NCBI GenBank assembly: GCA_021806095.1
Contig: JAJZYD010000001.1
Location: forward strand, 1 to 58,372
DNA: 58,372 nt
Direction of reading: 5' to 3'
From: Candidatus Micrarchaeota archaeon
Lineage (GTDB): Archaea > Micrarchaeota > Micrarchaeia > Micrarchaeales > Micrarchaeaceae
Below are positions 7,998 to 48,823 of the stretch, piece after piece; within the stretch, counting starts at the first letter, position 1; each line of letters starts with the position of its first letter. The translations under genes were made by a program, and so were the position numbers. The notes under the pieces are model-generated. The model worked only from the letters and a program-made list of their open reading frames with translations, searched no databases and was not told the origin of the DNA.

Positions 7998-8063
7998 ACG
8001 TTTATTTTTTCTTCTTCTTTTTCTTATTATTCTATTTCTTATTATTTTTATGTCTTTCGAAAT

Positions 8064-8164
8064 CCCGTTGGGGAGATTTGAACTCCCAGCCTATCGGTAT
8101 CCAACATGTTGTACATGCTGCAAACAAACTACAGCCGATCGCTCTGCCATTGAGCTACAACGGG
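8064..8164 (-). tRNA. tRNA-Tyr (anticodon GUA) with an approximately 30-nt intron after position 37
   Basis: Reverse complement: CCCGTTG-TA-GCTC-AATGGCA-GAGC-G-ATCGG-CTGTAG[tttgtttgcagcatgtacaacatgttggat]A-CCGAT-AGGCT-GGGAG-TTCAAAT-CTCCC-CAACGGG. All four stems pair. The mature length is 71 nt once the 30 nt are removed. Confidence 0.88.
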
Positions 8165-26296: not shown

Positions 26297-27958
26297 ATGC
26301 AGATAAAATATTTTTTGGAAAATAAAGTAATAATTTTTGTTCTGTTAGGTGTCCTATTGCTAATGCCTAATGCAATAAATGCACAAACAGCACTTCAATC
26401 ACCAAATGGTGCACTGTCGATAATTAATTTAAATACAACACCACAAACAATAGTTGCAGGAGAAAATGTTGTTTTAACTTTTCAACTCTTCAATTCTTAT
26501 TCTGCGGCATTGCAAAGCGTAAATTTGCAGCTTCAAGCATCAAATCCGATAATAAAAGTGTCTCCATCAAGTACATCTCTTATTGACACAATAGGAAGCG
26601 GGCAATATGGCGGATTAGGTTATGACTTCTTTACATATGTACTTCATATCCCATCAACACTTTCATCAGGTGAATACACAATAGATGTTGTTGCTAATTA
26701 TGAGGCGCCGACTTCTACATCAGCCCAATATAGCCAAACTGTCCCAGCAGAATCCATAATGCCTATTAATTTTTATGTTTATGGAAAACCACATATTCAA
26801 TTAACAGTATCACCAGAACAACCTATCCAACCTGGAACTTTATCAAGCGTATATCTAGATCTCACAAATACAGGGACTGCACCAATATATAATATAACAT
26901 TGCAGATCAACAATTCAAAATATTTTGAGATACCAATTCAGAATGAATTTATGATAGGTGTATTGCAAGCAGGTCAAACAATCCAACTACCTACAGAATT
27001 GCTGCCTATTCAAACAATTTCAAATGGAACATACAGCTTAAATGGAAATATAATTTATACAAGCGAAGAAGGAAATATTACAAATACACCAATATCTGGG
27101 CAGGTTTCTATTATAATAAACAAACCAAATATTGTTGTTGATGCAAATTCAGGAGTTCCACAAAATCTTTATCCTGGAGCAAATCAAACTATAAGCTTAC
27201 TAATACAAAATATAGGAATGGGTGAAGCAAAGAATGTTACTATATCATTTGAAAATACAAATGTGATAAGTGTTGGAAGTATATCAAGTTTCTTTATACC
27301 GTCTCTTCCTCCATCTTCATCTGTTCCAGAAGAGTTATTTGTAACTGCAAATAAAAATGCTTCATTAAGTAAATACAATCTTCCAGAAAATATAAGTTAT
27401 TTATATTCAAATTATCAGAATAAAACAAGTATTGAGGAAAATTTACCTATATACATTTCTCCAAGCGCTGTTATTAGTATAGAAAAAGTATATAGCAATT
27501 TAAACATCGGTGCATCATATACACCTATAACTTTTGAAATTAAAAATATAGGGGATGAAAAAGCTCAAGGAATGTCTATAACACTTCAAAGTACTTATCC
27601 AATAACACCAATAAATTCAAATCAATATATCAATAATCTTCTTCCAGGACAATCTACAAACATAACATTTTATGTAAGTGTTGATACTTCTGGTAATATT
27701 GGAAATTACCCTATAACACTCTATTCACAATGGTCTCAGCCAAACGGAAATCTTAAACAGGAATATTATAGTACAAACAATTATTATGCAACTGTAGAAG
27801 GAAGCAGTAGTTCAAGTAAAGGATCAAACGTTGGAGGAATCGGACTGATTATAGTAGTTGCAGTAATAATAGCAGCATATTATATGTATGAAAGAGTGCA
27901 AAAGAACAAAAAGATGCAAAAATCAAAGAATAAAACAAAAGAGGTTCAAAAGGAGTAA
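26297..27958 (+). CDS. Secreted multi-domain (CARDB/COG1361-like) cell-surface protein with a C-terminal TM anchor
   Basis: Signal peptide (VIIFVLLGVLLLMPNAINA). Repeated beta-rich modules with the N.G...A.N pattern (LTNTGTAPIYNI, IQNIGMGEAKNV, IKNIGDEKAQGM). C-terminal TM plus a Lys-rich tail. Confidence 0.55.
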   Translation: MQIKYFLENKVIIFVLLGVLLLMPNAINAQTALQSPNGALSIINLNTTPQTIVAGENVVLTFQLFNSYSAALQSVNLQLQASNPIIKVSPSSTSLIDTIGSGQYGGLGYDFFTYVLHIPSTLSSGEYTIDVVANYEAPTSTSAQYSQTVPAESIMPINFYVYGKPHIQLTVSPEQPIQPGTLSSVYLDLTNTGTAPIYNITLQINNSKYFEIPIQNEFMIGVLQAGQTIQLPTELLPIQTISNGTYSLNGNIIYTSEEGNITNTPISGQVSIIINKPNIVVDANSGVPQNLYPGANQTISLLIQNIGMGEAKNVTISFENTNVISVGSISSFFIPSLPPSSSVPEELFVTANKNASLSKYNLPENISYLYSNYQNKTSIEENLPIYISPSAVISIEKVYSNLNIGASYTPITFEIKNIGDEKAQGMSITLQSTYPITPINSNQYINNLLPGQSTNITFYVSVDTSGNIGNYPITLYSQWSQPNGNLKQEYYSTNNYYATVEGSSSSSKGSNVGGIGLIIVVAVIIAAYYMYERVQKNKKMQKSKNKTKEVQKE

Positions 27959-40691: not shown

Positions 40692-41057
40692 TTAATTATG
40701 TGAAGGCGATATTTGTTTGAGCTTCAACATATTCCTATATTTATTAACCAATGCAACTGCCTGCGACACAGCTTTAATAACATCTGCTCTTGTATGTGCT
40801 CCTGTACATATCACCTTGCCATTCTTGAAAAGAAGGAGTGCCGCCTTGGGTTCGTGTATTTTTAATATTGCCCCTGGAAATTGTTCTGGTTCATAATCAA
40901 TATCTGGGGATATTTTAGCAAGATTATAAAGGTCAAGATCAACTTTCATATCTGCGCTTGCAACAATATTTTCTACATGATATGTTGGTTTTAATACAAC
41001 ATGTTTATACTTTGTCTCTATTTTTTTTGCATTTTTTCTTTCCTTTTTTCTTACCAT
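40692..41057 (-). CDS. tbp: Single-repeat TATA-box-binding-protein-like protein (half-size TBP) with a basic N-terminal tail
   Basis: VENIVASADMKVDLDLYNLAKISPDIDYEPEQFPGAILKIHEPKAALLLFKNGKVICTGAHTRADVIKAV matches one complete TBP repeat (ENIVAS...YEPEQFPG...LLFxSGKxVCTGA). The ORF is only 121 aa, flanked by noncoding DNA and rfcL. Confidence 0.8.
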   Translation of the reverse strand: MVRKKERKNAKKIETKYKHVVLKPTYHVENIVASADMKVDLDLYNLAKISPDIDYEPEQFPGAILKIHEPKAALLLFKNGKVICTGAHTRADVIKAVSQAVALVNKYRNMLKLKQISPSHN

Positions 41058-41309: not shown

Positions 41310-43079
41310 TTATTTTAAAATTTTATTTATAAAAACAAATGAATCTTCTTCTTCCCCGATTTTTGTAAAATTATTTTTTGTCAATAAAGTTATTGAAGCA
41401 GTATTTTTCTTTTTTGATAATGCGTATACTTCTTTTATATTTATATCATTCATTTTTTTAATTATTTTGTTTAATAAGTCTGTTGCAATTCCTTTGCGCC
41501 TATATTCCTGTTTTATAGCAATACCCAATTCAAAGCGCTTTTTATTTTGATTCCATACAACGTTTGAAAAACCCACTACTACATTTATTGAATTATTTAT
41601 TGCTAAAAGAAAATATCCTTTTTTCATTTCCATATTTCTTATATTGTATCCAATCCATTTATCAATATCTATTATTTTATATAACTCCATTTGACTGTCT
41701 TCTTCTTTTTTAAGATCATTTATAAGTTTTTTAATGTGCTCTAAATAATCTAAATTTAAAGGTATTAATACAATTTTCTTAATCTCTTTATAATAATAAT
41801 ACTCTAGCAAATATCTTAATATTTCATTAATTACTGTACAAGAATATTTATCTATAAATCCTAATTTGCCTGTTTTTGTATATATATCATATGCACAACT
41901 TCCTCCACATAATCCAAGAGCAGGACAATTCCAGCATTCCTCATTATATAGAGGAATGCCCATTTTTATCCATTCATACATTAAAGGATTCTTGGTAGCT
42001 AAGAAACCGTTTGCTATTTTATCTTGATACAAATCTGCGGTAAAAAATGCTTGACATGGTCCAAGGGTTCCTTTTGGTGAAAATGCAATTTGCTGACCAT
42101 ACGCAGGACAGTCATAAAATTTAGGTATTTCATTAAATAAAGATTCTGCCCGTCTTCTTCCTATCCTATCCTCATATATATTTAATTCTTGAGCTCTTGT
42201 AAATCCCCTAAATAAATAATATGCAAGAATTTTAGGATCTTCAACTGCATAATCTTTATTTGTTGCATCAAGAATAATATTAAAACCAATTGCTTTAACA
42301 CCTAATTCATAAAAGAAATCAACTATTTTATCAAGAAAAAGATAATTGAATTTTGTTACTGTGCAAGATATTCCAGGTGATATTCCATTTTGTTTTAATA
42401 TAGACAGTGCTTTTATTACATCAAAAAAACTTTCATTGTTATTTTTATATACTCTATTTTTATTTAAATTTCCCCACCCATCTAAGGACAAACTGATACC
42501 AAAAGCATGTTCTTTAAAATATTTAGCTATTTCATCATTCATTAGACTTCCATTAGTTATTATACTAAATTTAAATTTGTCTTTATTGATTGCTTCAAAT
42601 TGTTCTACAAAATATTTTAAAATTTTAATGTTTAATAAAGGTTCACCCCCATAAAATATAATCTTATATTTATCAATATTTTTAGAATTATTCTTTATAA
42701 TCTTGATAATGTTGTCTGCTTGATTCTCATTCATAAAACTGCGTTTTGAAGAAAGTGCATTTTCAATATAACAATATTTACATCTAAAATTACATTCATC
42801 AGTTAATAAAATATAAGACATTGAAGGATTTGGTGCTTTAATTGTTTTAGTTTGAATTATTTTATTAATAGCTTCTTTTTTATTATAATTATCATTTACT
42901 ATAAACTTTAGTTTTTTTAGATTTTCTACGCTCTCATTATCTGCATTAGTTTGTATATCCTTAATCAATTGTTTATACTCAATATTGTTCATATATACTT
43001 TTTTTAATGAGAGAGAATGAAATAAACATATTTGATCCTTGCAACAATCAAATACATAAACAAATGGAGATATTTTCAA
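41310..43079 (-). CDS. Radical SAM / SPASM-domain peptide-modifying enzyme fused to a C-terminal GNAT N-acetyltransferase
   Basis: rSAM cluster CNFRCKYC. SPASM motifs C-x12-G-x4-C (CPAYGQQIAFSPKGTLGPC) and C-x2-C-x5-C-x3-C (CWNCPALGLCGGSC), plus a downstream Cys. GNAT motif A QEYRRKGIATDLL in the last ~150 aa. The N-terminal ~85 aa before the cluster could be an RRE. TTG start preceded by AAGTGA. Confidence 0.85.
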   Translation of the reverse strand: MKISPFVYVFDCCKDQICLFHSLSLKKVYMNNIEYKQLIKDIQTNADNESVENLKKLKFIVNDNYNKKEAINKIIQTKTIKAPNPSMSYILLTDECNFRCKYCYIENALSSKRSFMNENQADNIIKIIKNNSKNIDKYKIIFYGGEPLLNIKILKYFVEQFEAINKDKFKFSIITNGSLMNDEIAKYFKEHAFGISLSLDGWGNLNKNRVYKNNNESFFDVIKALSILKQNGISPGISCTVTKFNYLFLDKIVDFFYELGVKAIGFNIILDATNKDYAVEDPKILAYYLFRGFTRAQELNIYEDRIGRRRAESLFNEIPKFYDCPAYGQQIAFSPKGTLGPCQAFFTADLYQDKIANGFLATKNPLMYEWIKMGIPLYNEECWNCPALGLCGGSCAYDIYTKTGKLGFIDKYSCTVINEILRYLLEYYYYKEIKKIVLIPLNLDYLEHIKKLINDLKKEEDSQMELYKIIDIDKWIGYNIRNMEMKKGYFLLAINNSINVVVGFSNVVWNQNKKRFELGIAIKQEYRRKGIATDLLNKIIKKMNDINIKEVYALSKKKNTASITLLTKNNFTKIGEEEDSFVFINKILK

Positions 43080-43104
43080 GTATTCACTTAATTATTGTTA
43101 AAAA

Positions 43105-43275
43105 TTATAGTAATTCTATTATTTTTATATTATTGTCTTGTGGGCCACTGCATATACAATCGCAATCATTTCCGTCACAATCGCCTCCACCACAATAACC
43201 ATAATCGCATTCACTACATACATTCGATTCTATATCTTTTTGATTATATAGTAATATAGGTTTTGATATTTTCAT
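43105..43275 (-). CDS. Cys/Asp-rich 56-aa peptide, candidate precursor/substrate of the adjacent rSAM-SPASM enzyme (not in the ORF track)
   Basis: Own translation: MKISKPILLYNQKDIESNVCSECDYGYCGGGDCDGNDCDCICSGPQDNNIKIIELL*. AGTGGT SD-like motif 3 nt upstream of the ATG. Same strand as, and 25 nt upstream of, the rSAM gene. G+C-rich island in an AT-rich spacer. Confidence 0.65.
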   Translation of the reverse strand: MKISKPILLYNQKDIESNVCSECDYGYCGGGDCDGNDCDCICSGPQDNNIKIIELL

Positions 43276-43304
43276 GTTACCACTATAATACTCTCACTGG
43301 AAAG

Positions 43305-43314
43305 CTTTAAATAT
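43305..43314 (-). promoter_or_regulatory. TATA-like box for the peptide/rSAM operon
   Basis: The minus strand reads atatttaaag about 30-40 nt upstream of the peptide ATG. No other gene starts in this spacer. Confidence 0.3.
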
Positions 43315-44453: not shown

Positions 44454-44909
44454 TCAGCCAAAGATTGATCCAAATCCTTGATTTGCCCTTGAATCTTCAT
44501 CTTCTTTTATTGCTATAAATTTCTTTTCTATTTCAGGATCTGTTCTTTTTATTGTTTTAAAGTCTCTTTTAAATTTTTCTTCTGCAAGATCTAAAAATTC
44601 ATCTGTCGCTTTTAAATAAAGATAGCTTTTGCTTGTTTCTATTCCAAGTGCTCTACCTTCCCTTAAATCATAATCTTGTCTAACAAAGATAACATTTGCA
44701 AGTTTATCTTCTGAAAGCTTCTTCAATGATTCAGCAGCTCTTGCTTCTTTATCTTTATATTCCTTAAGCTGTTCTGGTGTCATTTTAGCTATATCTTTAT
44801 TACTGAGTTCCGGCACTTTAGGTATTAAATTATTATCTAAATAAGGATCGTAGCTTAATACCTTCTTTAATTCTTTAACCTCTGATTCATCACATTCATA
44901 TACACGCAT
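44454..44909 (-). CDS. Conserved hypothetical protein with an acidic, ribosomal-stalk-like C-terminal tail (…EDEDSRANQGFGSIFG)
   Basis: ORF directly downstream of rps8e. The ATG at 44909 is preceded by AGTGG; the ORF track uses GTG at 44924. Charged helical protein with no catalytic motifs. Confidence 0.5.
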   Translation of the reverse strand: MRVYECDESEVKELKKVLSYDPYLDNNLIPKVPELSNKDIAKMTPEQLKEYKDKEARAAESLKKLSEDKLANVIFVRQDYDLREGRALGIETSKSYLYLKATDEFLDLAEEKFKRDFKTIKRTDPEIEKKFIAIKEDEDSRANQGFGSIFG

Positions 44910-44916
44910 AGCCACT

Positions 44917-45327
44917 TTAAGCACCTACTAATTTTGCATTTATGCTTCCATCTCTTCCAGGCCTGTTTATTACTTCAACTTTACCTAATTCAGTGTTTAA
45001 AATAGTCCCTTTTGTTATAATATTTTGTCTGGCAAAGTTTTTGTTGTCTTTTGATTCAAGCACACCTTTTATTTTAACTTTTTTGTAACCTTCCTTTGTT
45101 AAAACATTAGCATAAGCCGCATGCTTCAATACAACACTTCTTCTGCCACCTCGTCTTCTTACTGTCTTAACTTTATTTTTATCCTCTTTTACATCTGCAA
45201 GTTTTGTCGATACAAAATAATTTCCTATTTCACTTCTTTTTTTGTCTCTAAATTTTATCTTCTTTTTACCATTCCCAACTTTCTTTGTATGGGATTTTCT
45301 ATGTAGTTGTACTCCAAATTGACTCAT
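44917..45327 (-). CDS. rps8e: 30S ribosomal protein S8e
   Basis: N-terminal QLHRKSHTKKVGNGKK... and C-terminal GKVEVINRPGRDGSINAKL match eS8. Confidence 0.9.
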   Translation of the reverse strand: MSQFGVQLHRKSHTKKVGNGKKKIKFRDKKRSEIGNYFVSTKLADVKEDKNKVKTVRRRGGRRSVVLKHAAYANVLTKEGYKKVKIKGVLESKDNKNFARQNIITKGTILNTELGKVEVINRPGRDGSINAKLVGA

Positions 45328-47671: not shown

Positions 47672-48823
47672 TTATGGTTGCATCCAATCAATCTCATAAT
47701 ATTCATAAGTGCTTTTTGGAAGTTCTATTTTAATTACTTTATAATAAGTTATTGCAGTTTCTCTATCTGCTATTGCAATAATAAGCTCAAGCTTCTTATC
47801 TTTTGCTTCGTTTATTATTGCACTTAGTTCAGCACCCCCTATTTTTTCTTCTTCGCTTAAAGATAACATTGCATATTTTGGCTTGCTTGTATCTGGTGTT
47901 TCAATATTATTATTTTTTCTGTGATATAACATAAAATCTATATTTATACTCCTTTTTCTACTTTTTCCAGGTATCGCAAGAATAAATGTCTTGCGAACGG
48001 AGTGTGCAACTCTTATCGCTCTGGCCCATTCAGAAATTAACAGTTTGGTATCTCTTGGGAATACATGTATAACATGTTTTGAATGCACCCAGTCATCATT
48101 TTTTATGGGTTTTGCACCAGGAAAATAAAGTCTAAAATGAGTTCCAAATTTAAATCCGGTTTTAATAACATAACCTTTGCTCCTCCAATCTTTATAAACT
48201 TGATAAAGCTTTATGAAGTCATTTCTTCGTTTTGTAGCAAGTTCAATAATACTGCTTTTATTATAGCCTTTTATATTAAGGATATTATTTTCCAGAAGAA
48301 ACAAGGTTTCATATATATCTAATTTGTTTAGTATACCCCTGTCGCTAAGTTTATATGTTCCATATTGGCCTAGCCAGTACTGTTCATAAAGCTCTTTTCC
48401 TATAATAGGTTCATCAATTACTGTTGTAAGGTCGTATGGAAAGAATAATCCCTCTATTGGTTTTATATTAAGCTTTAATTCGGATAAAGGATATTTTTTT
48501 TCTGGTAGTTTTGTTCCGATGCCATGTATTGAATCAAGTTTTTTTATTATCAAGCCCCTATCACGCCAATCTTTATAAGTCAAGTATCTTGCAAGTAATT
48601 TTCCATTCAATCCAAATCTTTCTGCAACTTTCCCAAAGCTCAATTCCTTTTTGTTATAGCTACAAGTTGCACCTCTAACATCAATCAAATAAAGAACCTC
48701 TTCAGATTCTAAATAAAGTAGTCTGTCCTTCATAAATCCAAAATATCCTTTTGCAAGGATATCTTTTGTTTGCTGGTCTGATGCAATAACCTCTTTCTTG
48801 CTTATGAAATCTAATTTTAGCAA
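47672..48823 (-). CDS. endA: tRNA-splicing endonuclease, three-unit single-polypeptide form
   Basis: Catalytic unit YKDWRSKGYVIKTGFKFGTHFRLY...HSKHVIHV...AHSVRKTFILAI (Tyr/His/Lys triad). A non-catalytic N-terminal unit (YLTYKDWRDRGLIIKK, no GxKFG block). An extra C-terminal structural unit (LELIIAIADRETAITYYKV). Confidence 0.8.
   Translation of the reverse strand: MLKLDFISKKEVIASDQQTKDILAKGYFGFMKDRLLYLESEEVLYLIDVRGATCSYNKKELSFGKVAERFGLNGKLLARYLTYKDWRDRGLIIKKLDSIHGIGTKLPEKKYPLSELKLNIKPIEGLFFPYDLTTVIDEPIIGKELYEQYWLGQYGTYKLSDRGILNKLDIYETLFLLENNILNIKGYNKSSIIELATKRRNDFIKLYQVYKDWRSKGYVIKTGFKFGTHFRLYFPGAKPIKNDDWVHSKHVIHVFPRDTKLLISEWARAIRVAHSVRKTFILAIPGKSRKRSINIDFMLYHRKNNNIETPDTSKPKYAMLSLSEEEKIGGAELSAIINEAKDKKLELIIAIADRETAITYYKVIKIELPKSTYEYYEIDWMQP

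Follow-up and report, generated by a model that had tools for sequence, protein, structure and literature searches.

The locus and its genes

The window under study, a stretch of 58,372 nt with an overall G+C content of 29%, carries on its reverse strand a short gene for a Cys/Asp-rich peptide and, immediately downstream, a gene for a radical SAM (rSAM) enzyme that combines RRE-like, SPASM-type, and GNAT domains (Table 1). The stop codon of the peptide gene and the TTG of the enzyme gene are exactly 25 nt apart, with AAGTGA preceding that TTG, as the first-pass annotation of this DNA had reported. The neighbors of this two-gene cassette are housekeeping genes encoding TBP, RFC, OTCase, and S8e.

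Table 1. Coordinates of the features discussed, in the window and in related loci (designated by L numbers)
Feature	Position	Strand	Remarks
Putative precursor peptide gene	43105..43275	(-)	ATG...TAA ORF, 56 aa plus stop; encodes MKISKPILLYNQKDIESNVCSECDYGYCGGGDCDGNDCDCICSGPQDNNIKIIELL
Peptide parts			Leader-like N-terminus with M-x-I-S, residues ~1-19; Cys/Asp-rich core, ~20-47; optional follower ending IIELL
Shine-Dalgarno-like AGTGGT	43279..43284	(-)	3 nt 5′ of the peptide ATG
TATA-like ATATTTAAAG	43305..43314	(-)	Possible promoter element, weakly supported
SD-like AAGTGA	43084..43089	(-)	Within the 25-nt spacer, ahead of the maturase TTG
Predicted maturase gene	41310-43079	(-)	TTG start, 589 aa; begins 25 nt past the peptide stop
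RRE-like, predicted peptide-binding domain, residues 1-85	42825..43079	(-)	Three strands then three helices in the AF2 model
Radical SAM core, residues ~86-320	42120..42824	(-)	C96-x3-C100-x2-C103
SPASM-type domain, residues ~321-435	41775..42119	(-)	C324, C342, C382, C385, C391, C395, C414
GNAT acyltransferase domain, residues ~436-589	41310..41774	(-)	Acyl-CoA loop R527-R-K-G530-I-A532
TBP gene	40692-41057	(-)	Just downstream of the cassette; 121 aa, Pfam match over residues 26-107
156-aa ORF	44454-44924	(-)	Between the S8e and carbamoyltransferase genes
Second tRNA	8063-8164	(-)	102 nt
tRNA-splicing endonuclease gene	47672-48823		
Peptide relatives	L005; L006/L007; L171/L172; L169; L173; L174; L088		Immediately 5′ of an rSAM gene
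rSAM-GNAT gene of L169	421-2161		Read in frames 1, 3, and 2
HExxH-containing ORF of L088	3076-3843		255 aa
AbiEi/AbiEii pair of L174	55-1421		Near the cassette
Bathyarchaeota repeat proteins	L009 4400-4855; L010 4497-5003; L011 4408-4866; L012 4404-4826; L008 4521-5045		
Paceibacterota and metagenome precursors	L013 2684-2848; L014 210-353; L015 2722-2871; L049 2717-2872; L092 1293-1493; L089 1169-1753		

The peptide gene

The reverse complement of 43105-43275 reads as a 56-codon ATG...TAA ORF with the translation previously described, which contains seven Cys (positions 20, 23, 28, 33, 38, 40, and 42) and seven Asp (positions 14, 24, 32, 34, 37, 39, and 47). The pentad spacing of C23, C28, C33, and C38 and the three C-x3-D spacings pointed out by the first-pass annotation are all there in the window peptide, and the core-coding DNA does form the G+C island that it had noted, with 43-45% G+C where the flanks have 12-28%. 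The Cys content of the peptide is 12.5%, compared to 0.7% for the long ORFs in the window. Contrary to what had been thought, the gene is not hidden: NCBI nr, JGI, ENA, and Logan all list the identical peptide among their called proteins, from 11 contigs.

The AGTGGT ahead of the peptide ATG is, as claimed, the identical word that stands ahead of the gene at 26297. Across the window, a GGTG/AGTGA-type motif (strict pattern) lies at -16..-6 in 28 of 57 gene starts versus ~3% of random 12-mers, and orthologous peptide genes exhibit an AGGTGAT or AGTGAT SD motif at the equivalent position. The upstream TATA-like box fared less well: the word is indeed present at 43314-43305, but similar words are found everywhere in this DNA of 29% G+C, and the box was dropped as independent evidence given their ubiquity. 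A TTTAAA-type word is located ~28-43 nt before the listed start in the window and in L002, L003, L005, and L001, and at about -39..-31 in three of those loci. At the usual archaeal TATA-to-start spacing, the TATA-like word here would leave a 5′UTR of only ~8 nt and thereby exclude the SD motif, so that the two elements cannot both operate with canonical spacing.

Could such a reading frame be a chance product of locally raised G+C within the AT-rich spacer? When sequences of 432 nt are shuffled at matched composition, 8-16% of them contain an ORF of 56 codons or more in one of the six frames, and the opposite strand itself carries overlapping ORFs of 54-63 aa. ORF length was accordingly dropped as evidence for a gene (P ~0.08-0.16 in the shuffles). 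The reality of the gene is settled instead by conservation at the protein level next to orthologous enzymes: the peptide is conserved in ten lineages of differing G+C, its start codons are preceded by SD motifs, and it always lies upstream of the orthologous enzyme. This refutes the chance reading, which we consider practically impossible, and bears out the earlier view that the spacer holds a true coding gene.

A rare peptide family with five invariant cysteines

Relatives of the peptide are few: profile searching across 5.8 billion proteins yielded only a handful, as did exhaustive HMMER screening of 1.84 billion representatives, among which the family amounts to ~10 sequence clusters. Ten divergent versions are present in public data, 35-57% identical to the window peptide, and the loci that encode them span 24-45% G+C, which places the conservation at the level of the protein. 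Their alignment (A5) defines the signature M-x-I-S...C-x2-C-[DE]-x3-C-G...G-x-D-C-D-C-x-C, in which C20, C23, C28, C38, and C40 are invariant and I3, S4, G29, D32, G35, D37, D39, and C42 are conserved at 90% or more. Indels of up to ~10 residues separate the invariant Cys, and the core is conserved more strongly than the leader, unlike in many antimicrobial RiPPs. The peptide matches no curated model in Pfam, NCBIfam, or PADLOC; the sole PADLOC match at the locus falls on the rSAM core of the enzyme and is a generic cross-match to viperin.

Several attributes singled out by the first-pass annotation thus take on a different weight across the family. With C33 variable and C28 and C38 set anywhere from ~6 to 16 residues apart, the pentad Cys periodicity is a quirk of the window member and not a family feature. 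Among the three C-x3-D motifs, the first persists as C-x2-C-[DE] in 9 of 10 peptides, while the other two vary in spacing or are absent and are, judging from the alignment, peculiar to the window member. The proposed 14-aa follower likewise holds for half of the family: five of the ten peptides carry one, with an ending of the form [IL]-x-[ER]-[LM]-L. L006 and L007 are strain variants of the same organism as the window, and their peptide differs from that of the window by a single nonsynonymous change, D34G (GAC to GGC in codon 34, window 43172-43174), with the surrounding 600 nt otherwise almost identical; this pair was considered for a dN/dS test and set aside as uninformative, its one change being embedded in almost identical DNA.

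Architecture of the enzyme

Public gene calls start the enzyme at an internal ATG, M30, and list it at 560 aa (P0001; likewise in L006 and L173). The TTG start proposed by the first-pass annotation is the correct one and yields the 589-aa form, considering that orthologues begin with MKFSPFVY, MRFSKFVF, or ..LSPFVY and that the SD-like AAGTGA precedes this TTG and not the M30 ATG. The annotated start codon is thereby corrected; the 560-aa call loses part of the RRE-like domain.

The AF2 model of the enzyme (pLDDT 86.4, pTM 0.72) consists of an RRE-like N-terminal domain followed by the barrel, the SPASM region, and a GNAT fold (residues 436-586). The N-domain is built from strands E7-13, E16-21, and E27-31 and helices H32-43, H49-56, and H67-78 (mean pLDDT per block, 86-95); in this model it is RRE-like, and it is predicted to bind a peptide. 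Pfam matches Radical_SAM (9e-21) and Fer4_12 over residues 90-239. Across 21 homologues, neither the Cys of the CX3CX2C motif nor any of the seven SPASM Cys varies. The Pfam SPASM model is absent from the families listed for the enzyme at E <= 1, and NCBIfam SPASM-maturase models align over residues ~321-435. Foldseek ranks TigE (8vpo) and CteB (5wgg, the SCIFF thioether maturase) at the top, with full-length superpositions at TM 0.70-0.74 over ~460 columns; the CteB alignment, second best, covers 457 columns at TM 0.74, and anSME, ChlB, SuiB, and SkfB come next. With an RRE-like domain in place and a structure closest to RRE-rSAM-SPASM peptide maturases, the enzyme type assigned earlier is upheld.

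That earlier reading overlooked a fused C-terminal GNAT domain, which Pfam delimits to residues ~468-577 with Acetyltransf_3, _1, and _7 all above their cut-offs. By PDB sequence match the domain is nearest to the archaeal N-alpha-acetyltransferase SSO0209 (4e-8), and its structural matches to ordinary GNATs reach TM 0.72-0.77. R527, K529, and G530 are invariant in five fused orthologues, and a Q/R-x-x-G-x-G/A-type loop is retained. A literature search on rSAM, GNAT, and RiPP turned up no paper reporting an rSAM-GNAT maturase, that is, a maturase physically fused to an acyltransferase.

A parallel for the fusion is Elp3, which unites a radical SAM domain with a C-terminal GNAT/KAT domain and acts on tRNA, with neither RRE nor SPASM. 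The two proteins share two catalytic domains in the same order on one polypeptide; the structural match to Elp3 is weak, however (TM 0.22), and the window GNAT is closer to N-alpha-acetyltransferases. An Elp3-like partnership, where the 5′-deoxyadenosyl radical would act on GNAT-bound acetyl-CoA or on a GNAT-positioned peptide and an acetyl-derived group would be placed onto a core carbon or sulfur, is to our minds a long shot. If true, ultra-small DPANN archaea would harbor a peptide modification that has so far gone undescribed.

Pairing of peptide and enzyme

The first-pass annotation had tied the peptide to the downstream rSAM/SPASM gene and had named absence of the small ORF beside orthologous rSAM genes as the finding that would undo this link. 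The ORF is present in all ten lineages, paired and co-conserved with the enzyme. Wherever the contig continues downstream, a co-oriented orthologous rSAM gene follows, 31-60% identical to the window enzyme, with peptide-enzyme gaps, where checked, of -4 to ~45 nt. Each of the three enzymes nearest to it (50-58% identical) is GNAT-fused and has a small Cys/Asp-rich ORF immediately 5′ of its gene; the rSAM-GNAT enzyme of L088 is just 31% identical to that of the window. The GNAT fusion is encoded at every locus that extends to the 3′ end of the gene, eight in all. The peptide gene is real, it is conserved together with the enzyme gene, and the enzyme has an intact domain architecture and intact cofactor motifs. 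Always found just upstream of such an enzyme in Micrarchaeota-like (DPANN) archaea, the gene very probably encodes the precursor of an as yet uncharacterized modified peptide. Further afield, a metagenome scan for additional fused enzymes gave, among the matches listed, only relatives of 21-40% identity, and a genome scan of GTDB representatives revealed no GNAT-fused member.

L169 had been entertained as a locus with separate RRE, rSAM, and GNAT genes, and gene calls there give separate proteins of 79, 311, and 145 aa. By tblastn, it is one fused gene with two frameshifts, either a pseudogene or the product of assembly indels.

No conserved protease, transporter/exporter, or immunity gene was found beside the cassette, and its neighbors vary by locus. 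The L088 ORF with an HExxH motif is confined to that locus, which additionally carries a PIN-domain gene; none of the downstream neighbor ORFs, this one included, has a Pfam match. An AbiEi/AbiEii pair is located near the cassette of L174. Such differences between loci (L088, L174) suggest that the cassette is accessory or mobile. Given that neither a protease nor an exporter travels with it, the role of the cassette may be intracellular or at the cell surface.

This minimal, two-gene organization amid housekeeping genes, with no conserved protease or exporter, together with the strong conservation of the core, raises the prospect that modification leads not to a secreted product but to a cofactor or housekeeping factor acting within the cell, with the peptide as its precursor, as for PqqA/PqqE, MftA/MftC, or the SCIFF peptides. 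The maturases of PQQ and mycofactocin are likewise RRE-dependent rSAM/SPASM enzymes. Yet the family is rare and patchy, at ~10 sequence clusters among 1.84 billion representatives; its neighborhoods are variable, some of them with AbiE and PIN genes, giving it the appearance of an accessory rather than an essential system; and the peptide matches none of the PqqA, MftA, and SCIFF models. On balance we deem a cofactor precursor unlikely.

A wider enzyme clade with diverse Cys-rich partners

Bathyarchaeota MAGs encode an rSAM/SPASM enzyme of ~45% identity to that of the window, without GNAT. Its likely substrate is encoded downstream of the enzyme, a protein of 140-174 aa with two to four tandem DCPTPLCSSCGN repeats set between conserved N- and C-terminal regions, and the repeat-protein gene is followed by a B12-binding rSAM methyltransferase-like gene. 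This locus is probably a separate, undescribed RiPP system with a repeat core. Direct reading of the sequences reveals C-S-x-C and G-N-D-C as common to the Micrarchaeota peptides and the Bathyarchaeota repeats.

More distant enzymes, 28-33% identical, occur in Paceibacterota and on unassigned metagenome contigs, where they are paired with other Cys-rich peptides such as ...KCGTCACKCACRYNN... and ...HASKCGTCACKCACRYNN..PW. Further precursors paired with these enzymes comprise a peptide of 66 aa whose C-terminal end is a long CxCxC run, and a protein of 194 aa that combines a CxCxC run with seven CAPPVD repeats. Seen across Bathyarchaeota, Paceibacterota, and metagenomes, the enzyme clade is consistently paired with Cys-rich precursors.

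These pairings bear on a further possibility, that the peptide is no substrate at all but a small protein of metallothionein- or rubredoxin-like character that binds metal or Fe-S and serves the enzyme as partner or electron donor. Five invariant Cys arranged in CxxC and CxCxC, the many carboxylates, and the tight linkage to an Fe-S enzyme would all be in keeping with such a function. Against it, the enzyme possesses a dedicated RRE-like, predicted peptide-binding domain; AF2 predicts no fold for the peptide alone, which appears disordered (pLDDT 42, shallow alignment); the indels of up to ~10 residues fall between the invariant Cys; and the relatives of the enzyme associate with very different Cys-rich peptides, tandem-repeat cores included, as is typical of substrates. 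A metal-binding partner is hence, in our estimation, quite improbable.

Comparison with known maturation systems

The window enzyme scores below every listed NCBIfam cut-off, and the top-ranked models are all rSAM/SPASM peptide maturases: FibroRumin (173 bits against a cut-off of 400), PapB (166/340), QhpD (120/453), CefB (117/600), and SCIFF (104/425). QhpD is of the rSAM/SPASM type and makes Cys-to-Asp/Glu thioethers, and QhpC is a subunit of an amine dehydrogenase. To our knowledge, PapB and QhpD are the enzymes characterized as linking Cys to Asp or Glu.

The PapA/PapB system (freyrasin; NF047865) resembles the window cassette in joining an rSAM/SPASM maturase to an adjacent short Cys/Asp-rich precursor. 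PapB is the second-best model match, and C-x3-[DE] is kept in 9 of 10 peptides of the window family. The two systems differ in that the window peptide is without the six-CX3D series and has a core of alternating C-D-C-x-C runs, the window enzyme is GNAT-fused and falls short of the NF047865 cut-off, the host is archaeal, and the type of cross-link is a prediction here. PapB accepts Cys-Xn-Asp with n = 0-6, and Glu as well (PMC9413430); this spacing tolerance makes the variable Cys-Asp spacing of the family compatible with PapB-type chemistry. QhpD/QhpC (TIGR03906) furnishes the third-best model match, below its cut-off; unlike in that system, amine dehydrogenase genes are absent here.

SCIFF and its maturases CteB and Tte1186 (TIGR03973/TIGR03974) offer a parallel in layout: their cassette is likewise minimal, two genes with neither protease nor exporter, and the RRE-rSAM-SPASM enzyme comes after a Cys-rich peptide of ~50 aa. 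They are set apart by the low maturase score, a different Cys pattern, the GNAT fusion of the window enzyme, and the absence of any peptide match to TIGR03973 at E <= 1. The best-scoring curated maturase model belongs to FibroRumin (TIGR04136 maturase, TIGR04135 Cys-rich peptide), and peptides of the Paceibacterota cousin enzymes weakly resemble TIGR04135 (E 0.075); the window maturase remains below the FibroRumin cut-off, and its peptide has no TIGR04135 match. A literature search found no paper on FibroRumin, so its chemistry offers no guidance. The Cys-every-fifth family CefA/CefB (NF038107) is a RiPP family defined by the same pentad-spaced Cys as the window peptide, a spacing that is not conserved in the orthologues of the latter, and the CefB score is far from its cut-off; here too the literature search found no paper.

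A proposed route to the mature peptide

From the foregoing, the window likely encodes a RiPP cassette made up of two genes and belonging to a Micrarchaeota-like (DPANN) archaeon, with the peptide modified by the rSAM/SPASM-GNAT enzyme; we infer that the peptide is the substrate, and likewise which cross-links form, where the acyl group goes, and what biological purpose is served. The 56-aa peptide would be translated from its own SD-preceded ATG, and its conserved N-terminal segment, M-x-I-S..., would dock with the RRE-like domain of the enzyme encoded downstream. Acting on the core (C-x2-C-[DE]-x3-C-G ... D-C-D-C-x-C), the radical-SAM/SPASM part would then modify its invariant Cys. Intramolecular thioether cross-links are the likeliest outcome, plausibly from Cys sulfur to Asp/Glu carbon as formed by PapB and QhpD. 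The fused GNAT would transfer an acyl group, probably acetyl, onto the same peptide, most likely at an alpha-amino group.

Asp/Glu are favored as acceptors by the presence of both PapB and QhpD among the top three models and by the tolerance of PapB for spacing and for Glu. By analogy with these enzymes, the Cys-to-Asp (ranthipeptide) chemistry put forward in the first-pass annotation is plausible for the window peptide. Sequence similarity does not fix the chemistry, however, given that the enzyme is below all cut-offs and that the nearest structure, TigE, is a cyclopropylglycine synthase (PMC10878394) and makes no thioethers. As for the acyl acceptor, GNATs are established RiPP tailoring enzymes that N-acylate other RiPPs (PMC9811515). 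No Lys is conserved across the family and two of its peptides have none whatsoever, which leaves an alpha-amino group as the only amine available in every member and the most likely acceptor.

The host and the wider significance of the cassette

SecY of the window is 91% identical to that of one named Ca. Micrarchaeia and 72-73% identical to those of other Micrarchaeota, which identifies the host as a DPANN archaeon, as the first-pass annotation had surmised. The window further encodes TBP, RFC, S8e, and a tRNA-splicing endonuclease. We know of no archaeal radical-SAM-modified peptide that has been chemically characterized. The earlier statement that no rSAM RiPP is described from DPANN therefore holds for products, none of which is characterized, but not for predictions, as genome-mining surveys have already reported predicted rSAM RiPP clusters in these archaea (PMC12144867, PMC12153355).

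By model scores, the window enzyme fits no curated equivalog, and the peptide signature of five invariant Cys plus Asp fits no curated model. DPANN archaea have tiny genomes and are host-dependent; that a peptide-modifying cassette is conserved there hints at a function worth its cost, with metal handling, host interaction, and signaling among the possibilities. Being a compact two-gene system, the cassette is suited to heterologous expression.

Other features of the window merit mention in their own right. Its TBP has a single TBP repeat instead of the usual two. The 156-aa ORF upstream of the cassette belongs to no Pfam family; its position is conserved in L006 and L007, whose gene calls give it 151 aa. 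The second tRNA was missed by ARAGORN and is recognized by Rfam at 60.7 bits; its length makes an intron probable, and the tRNA-splicing endonuclease is encoded in the same window.
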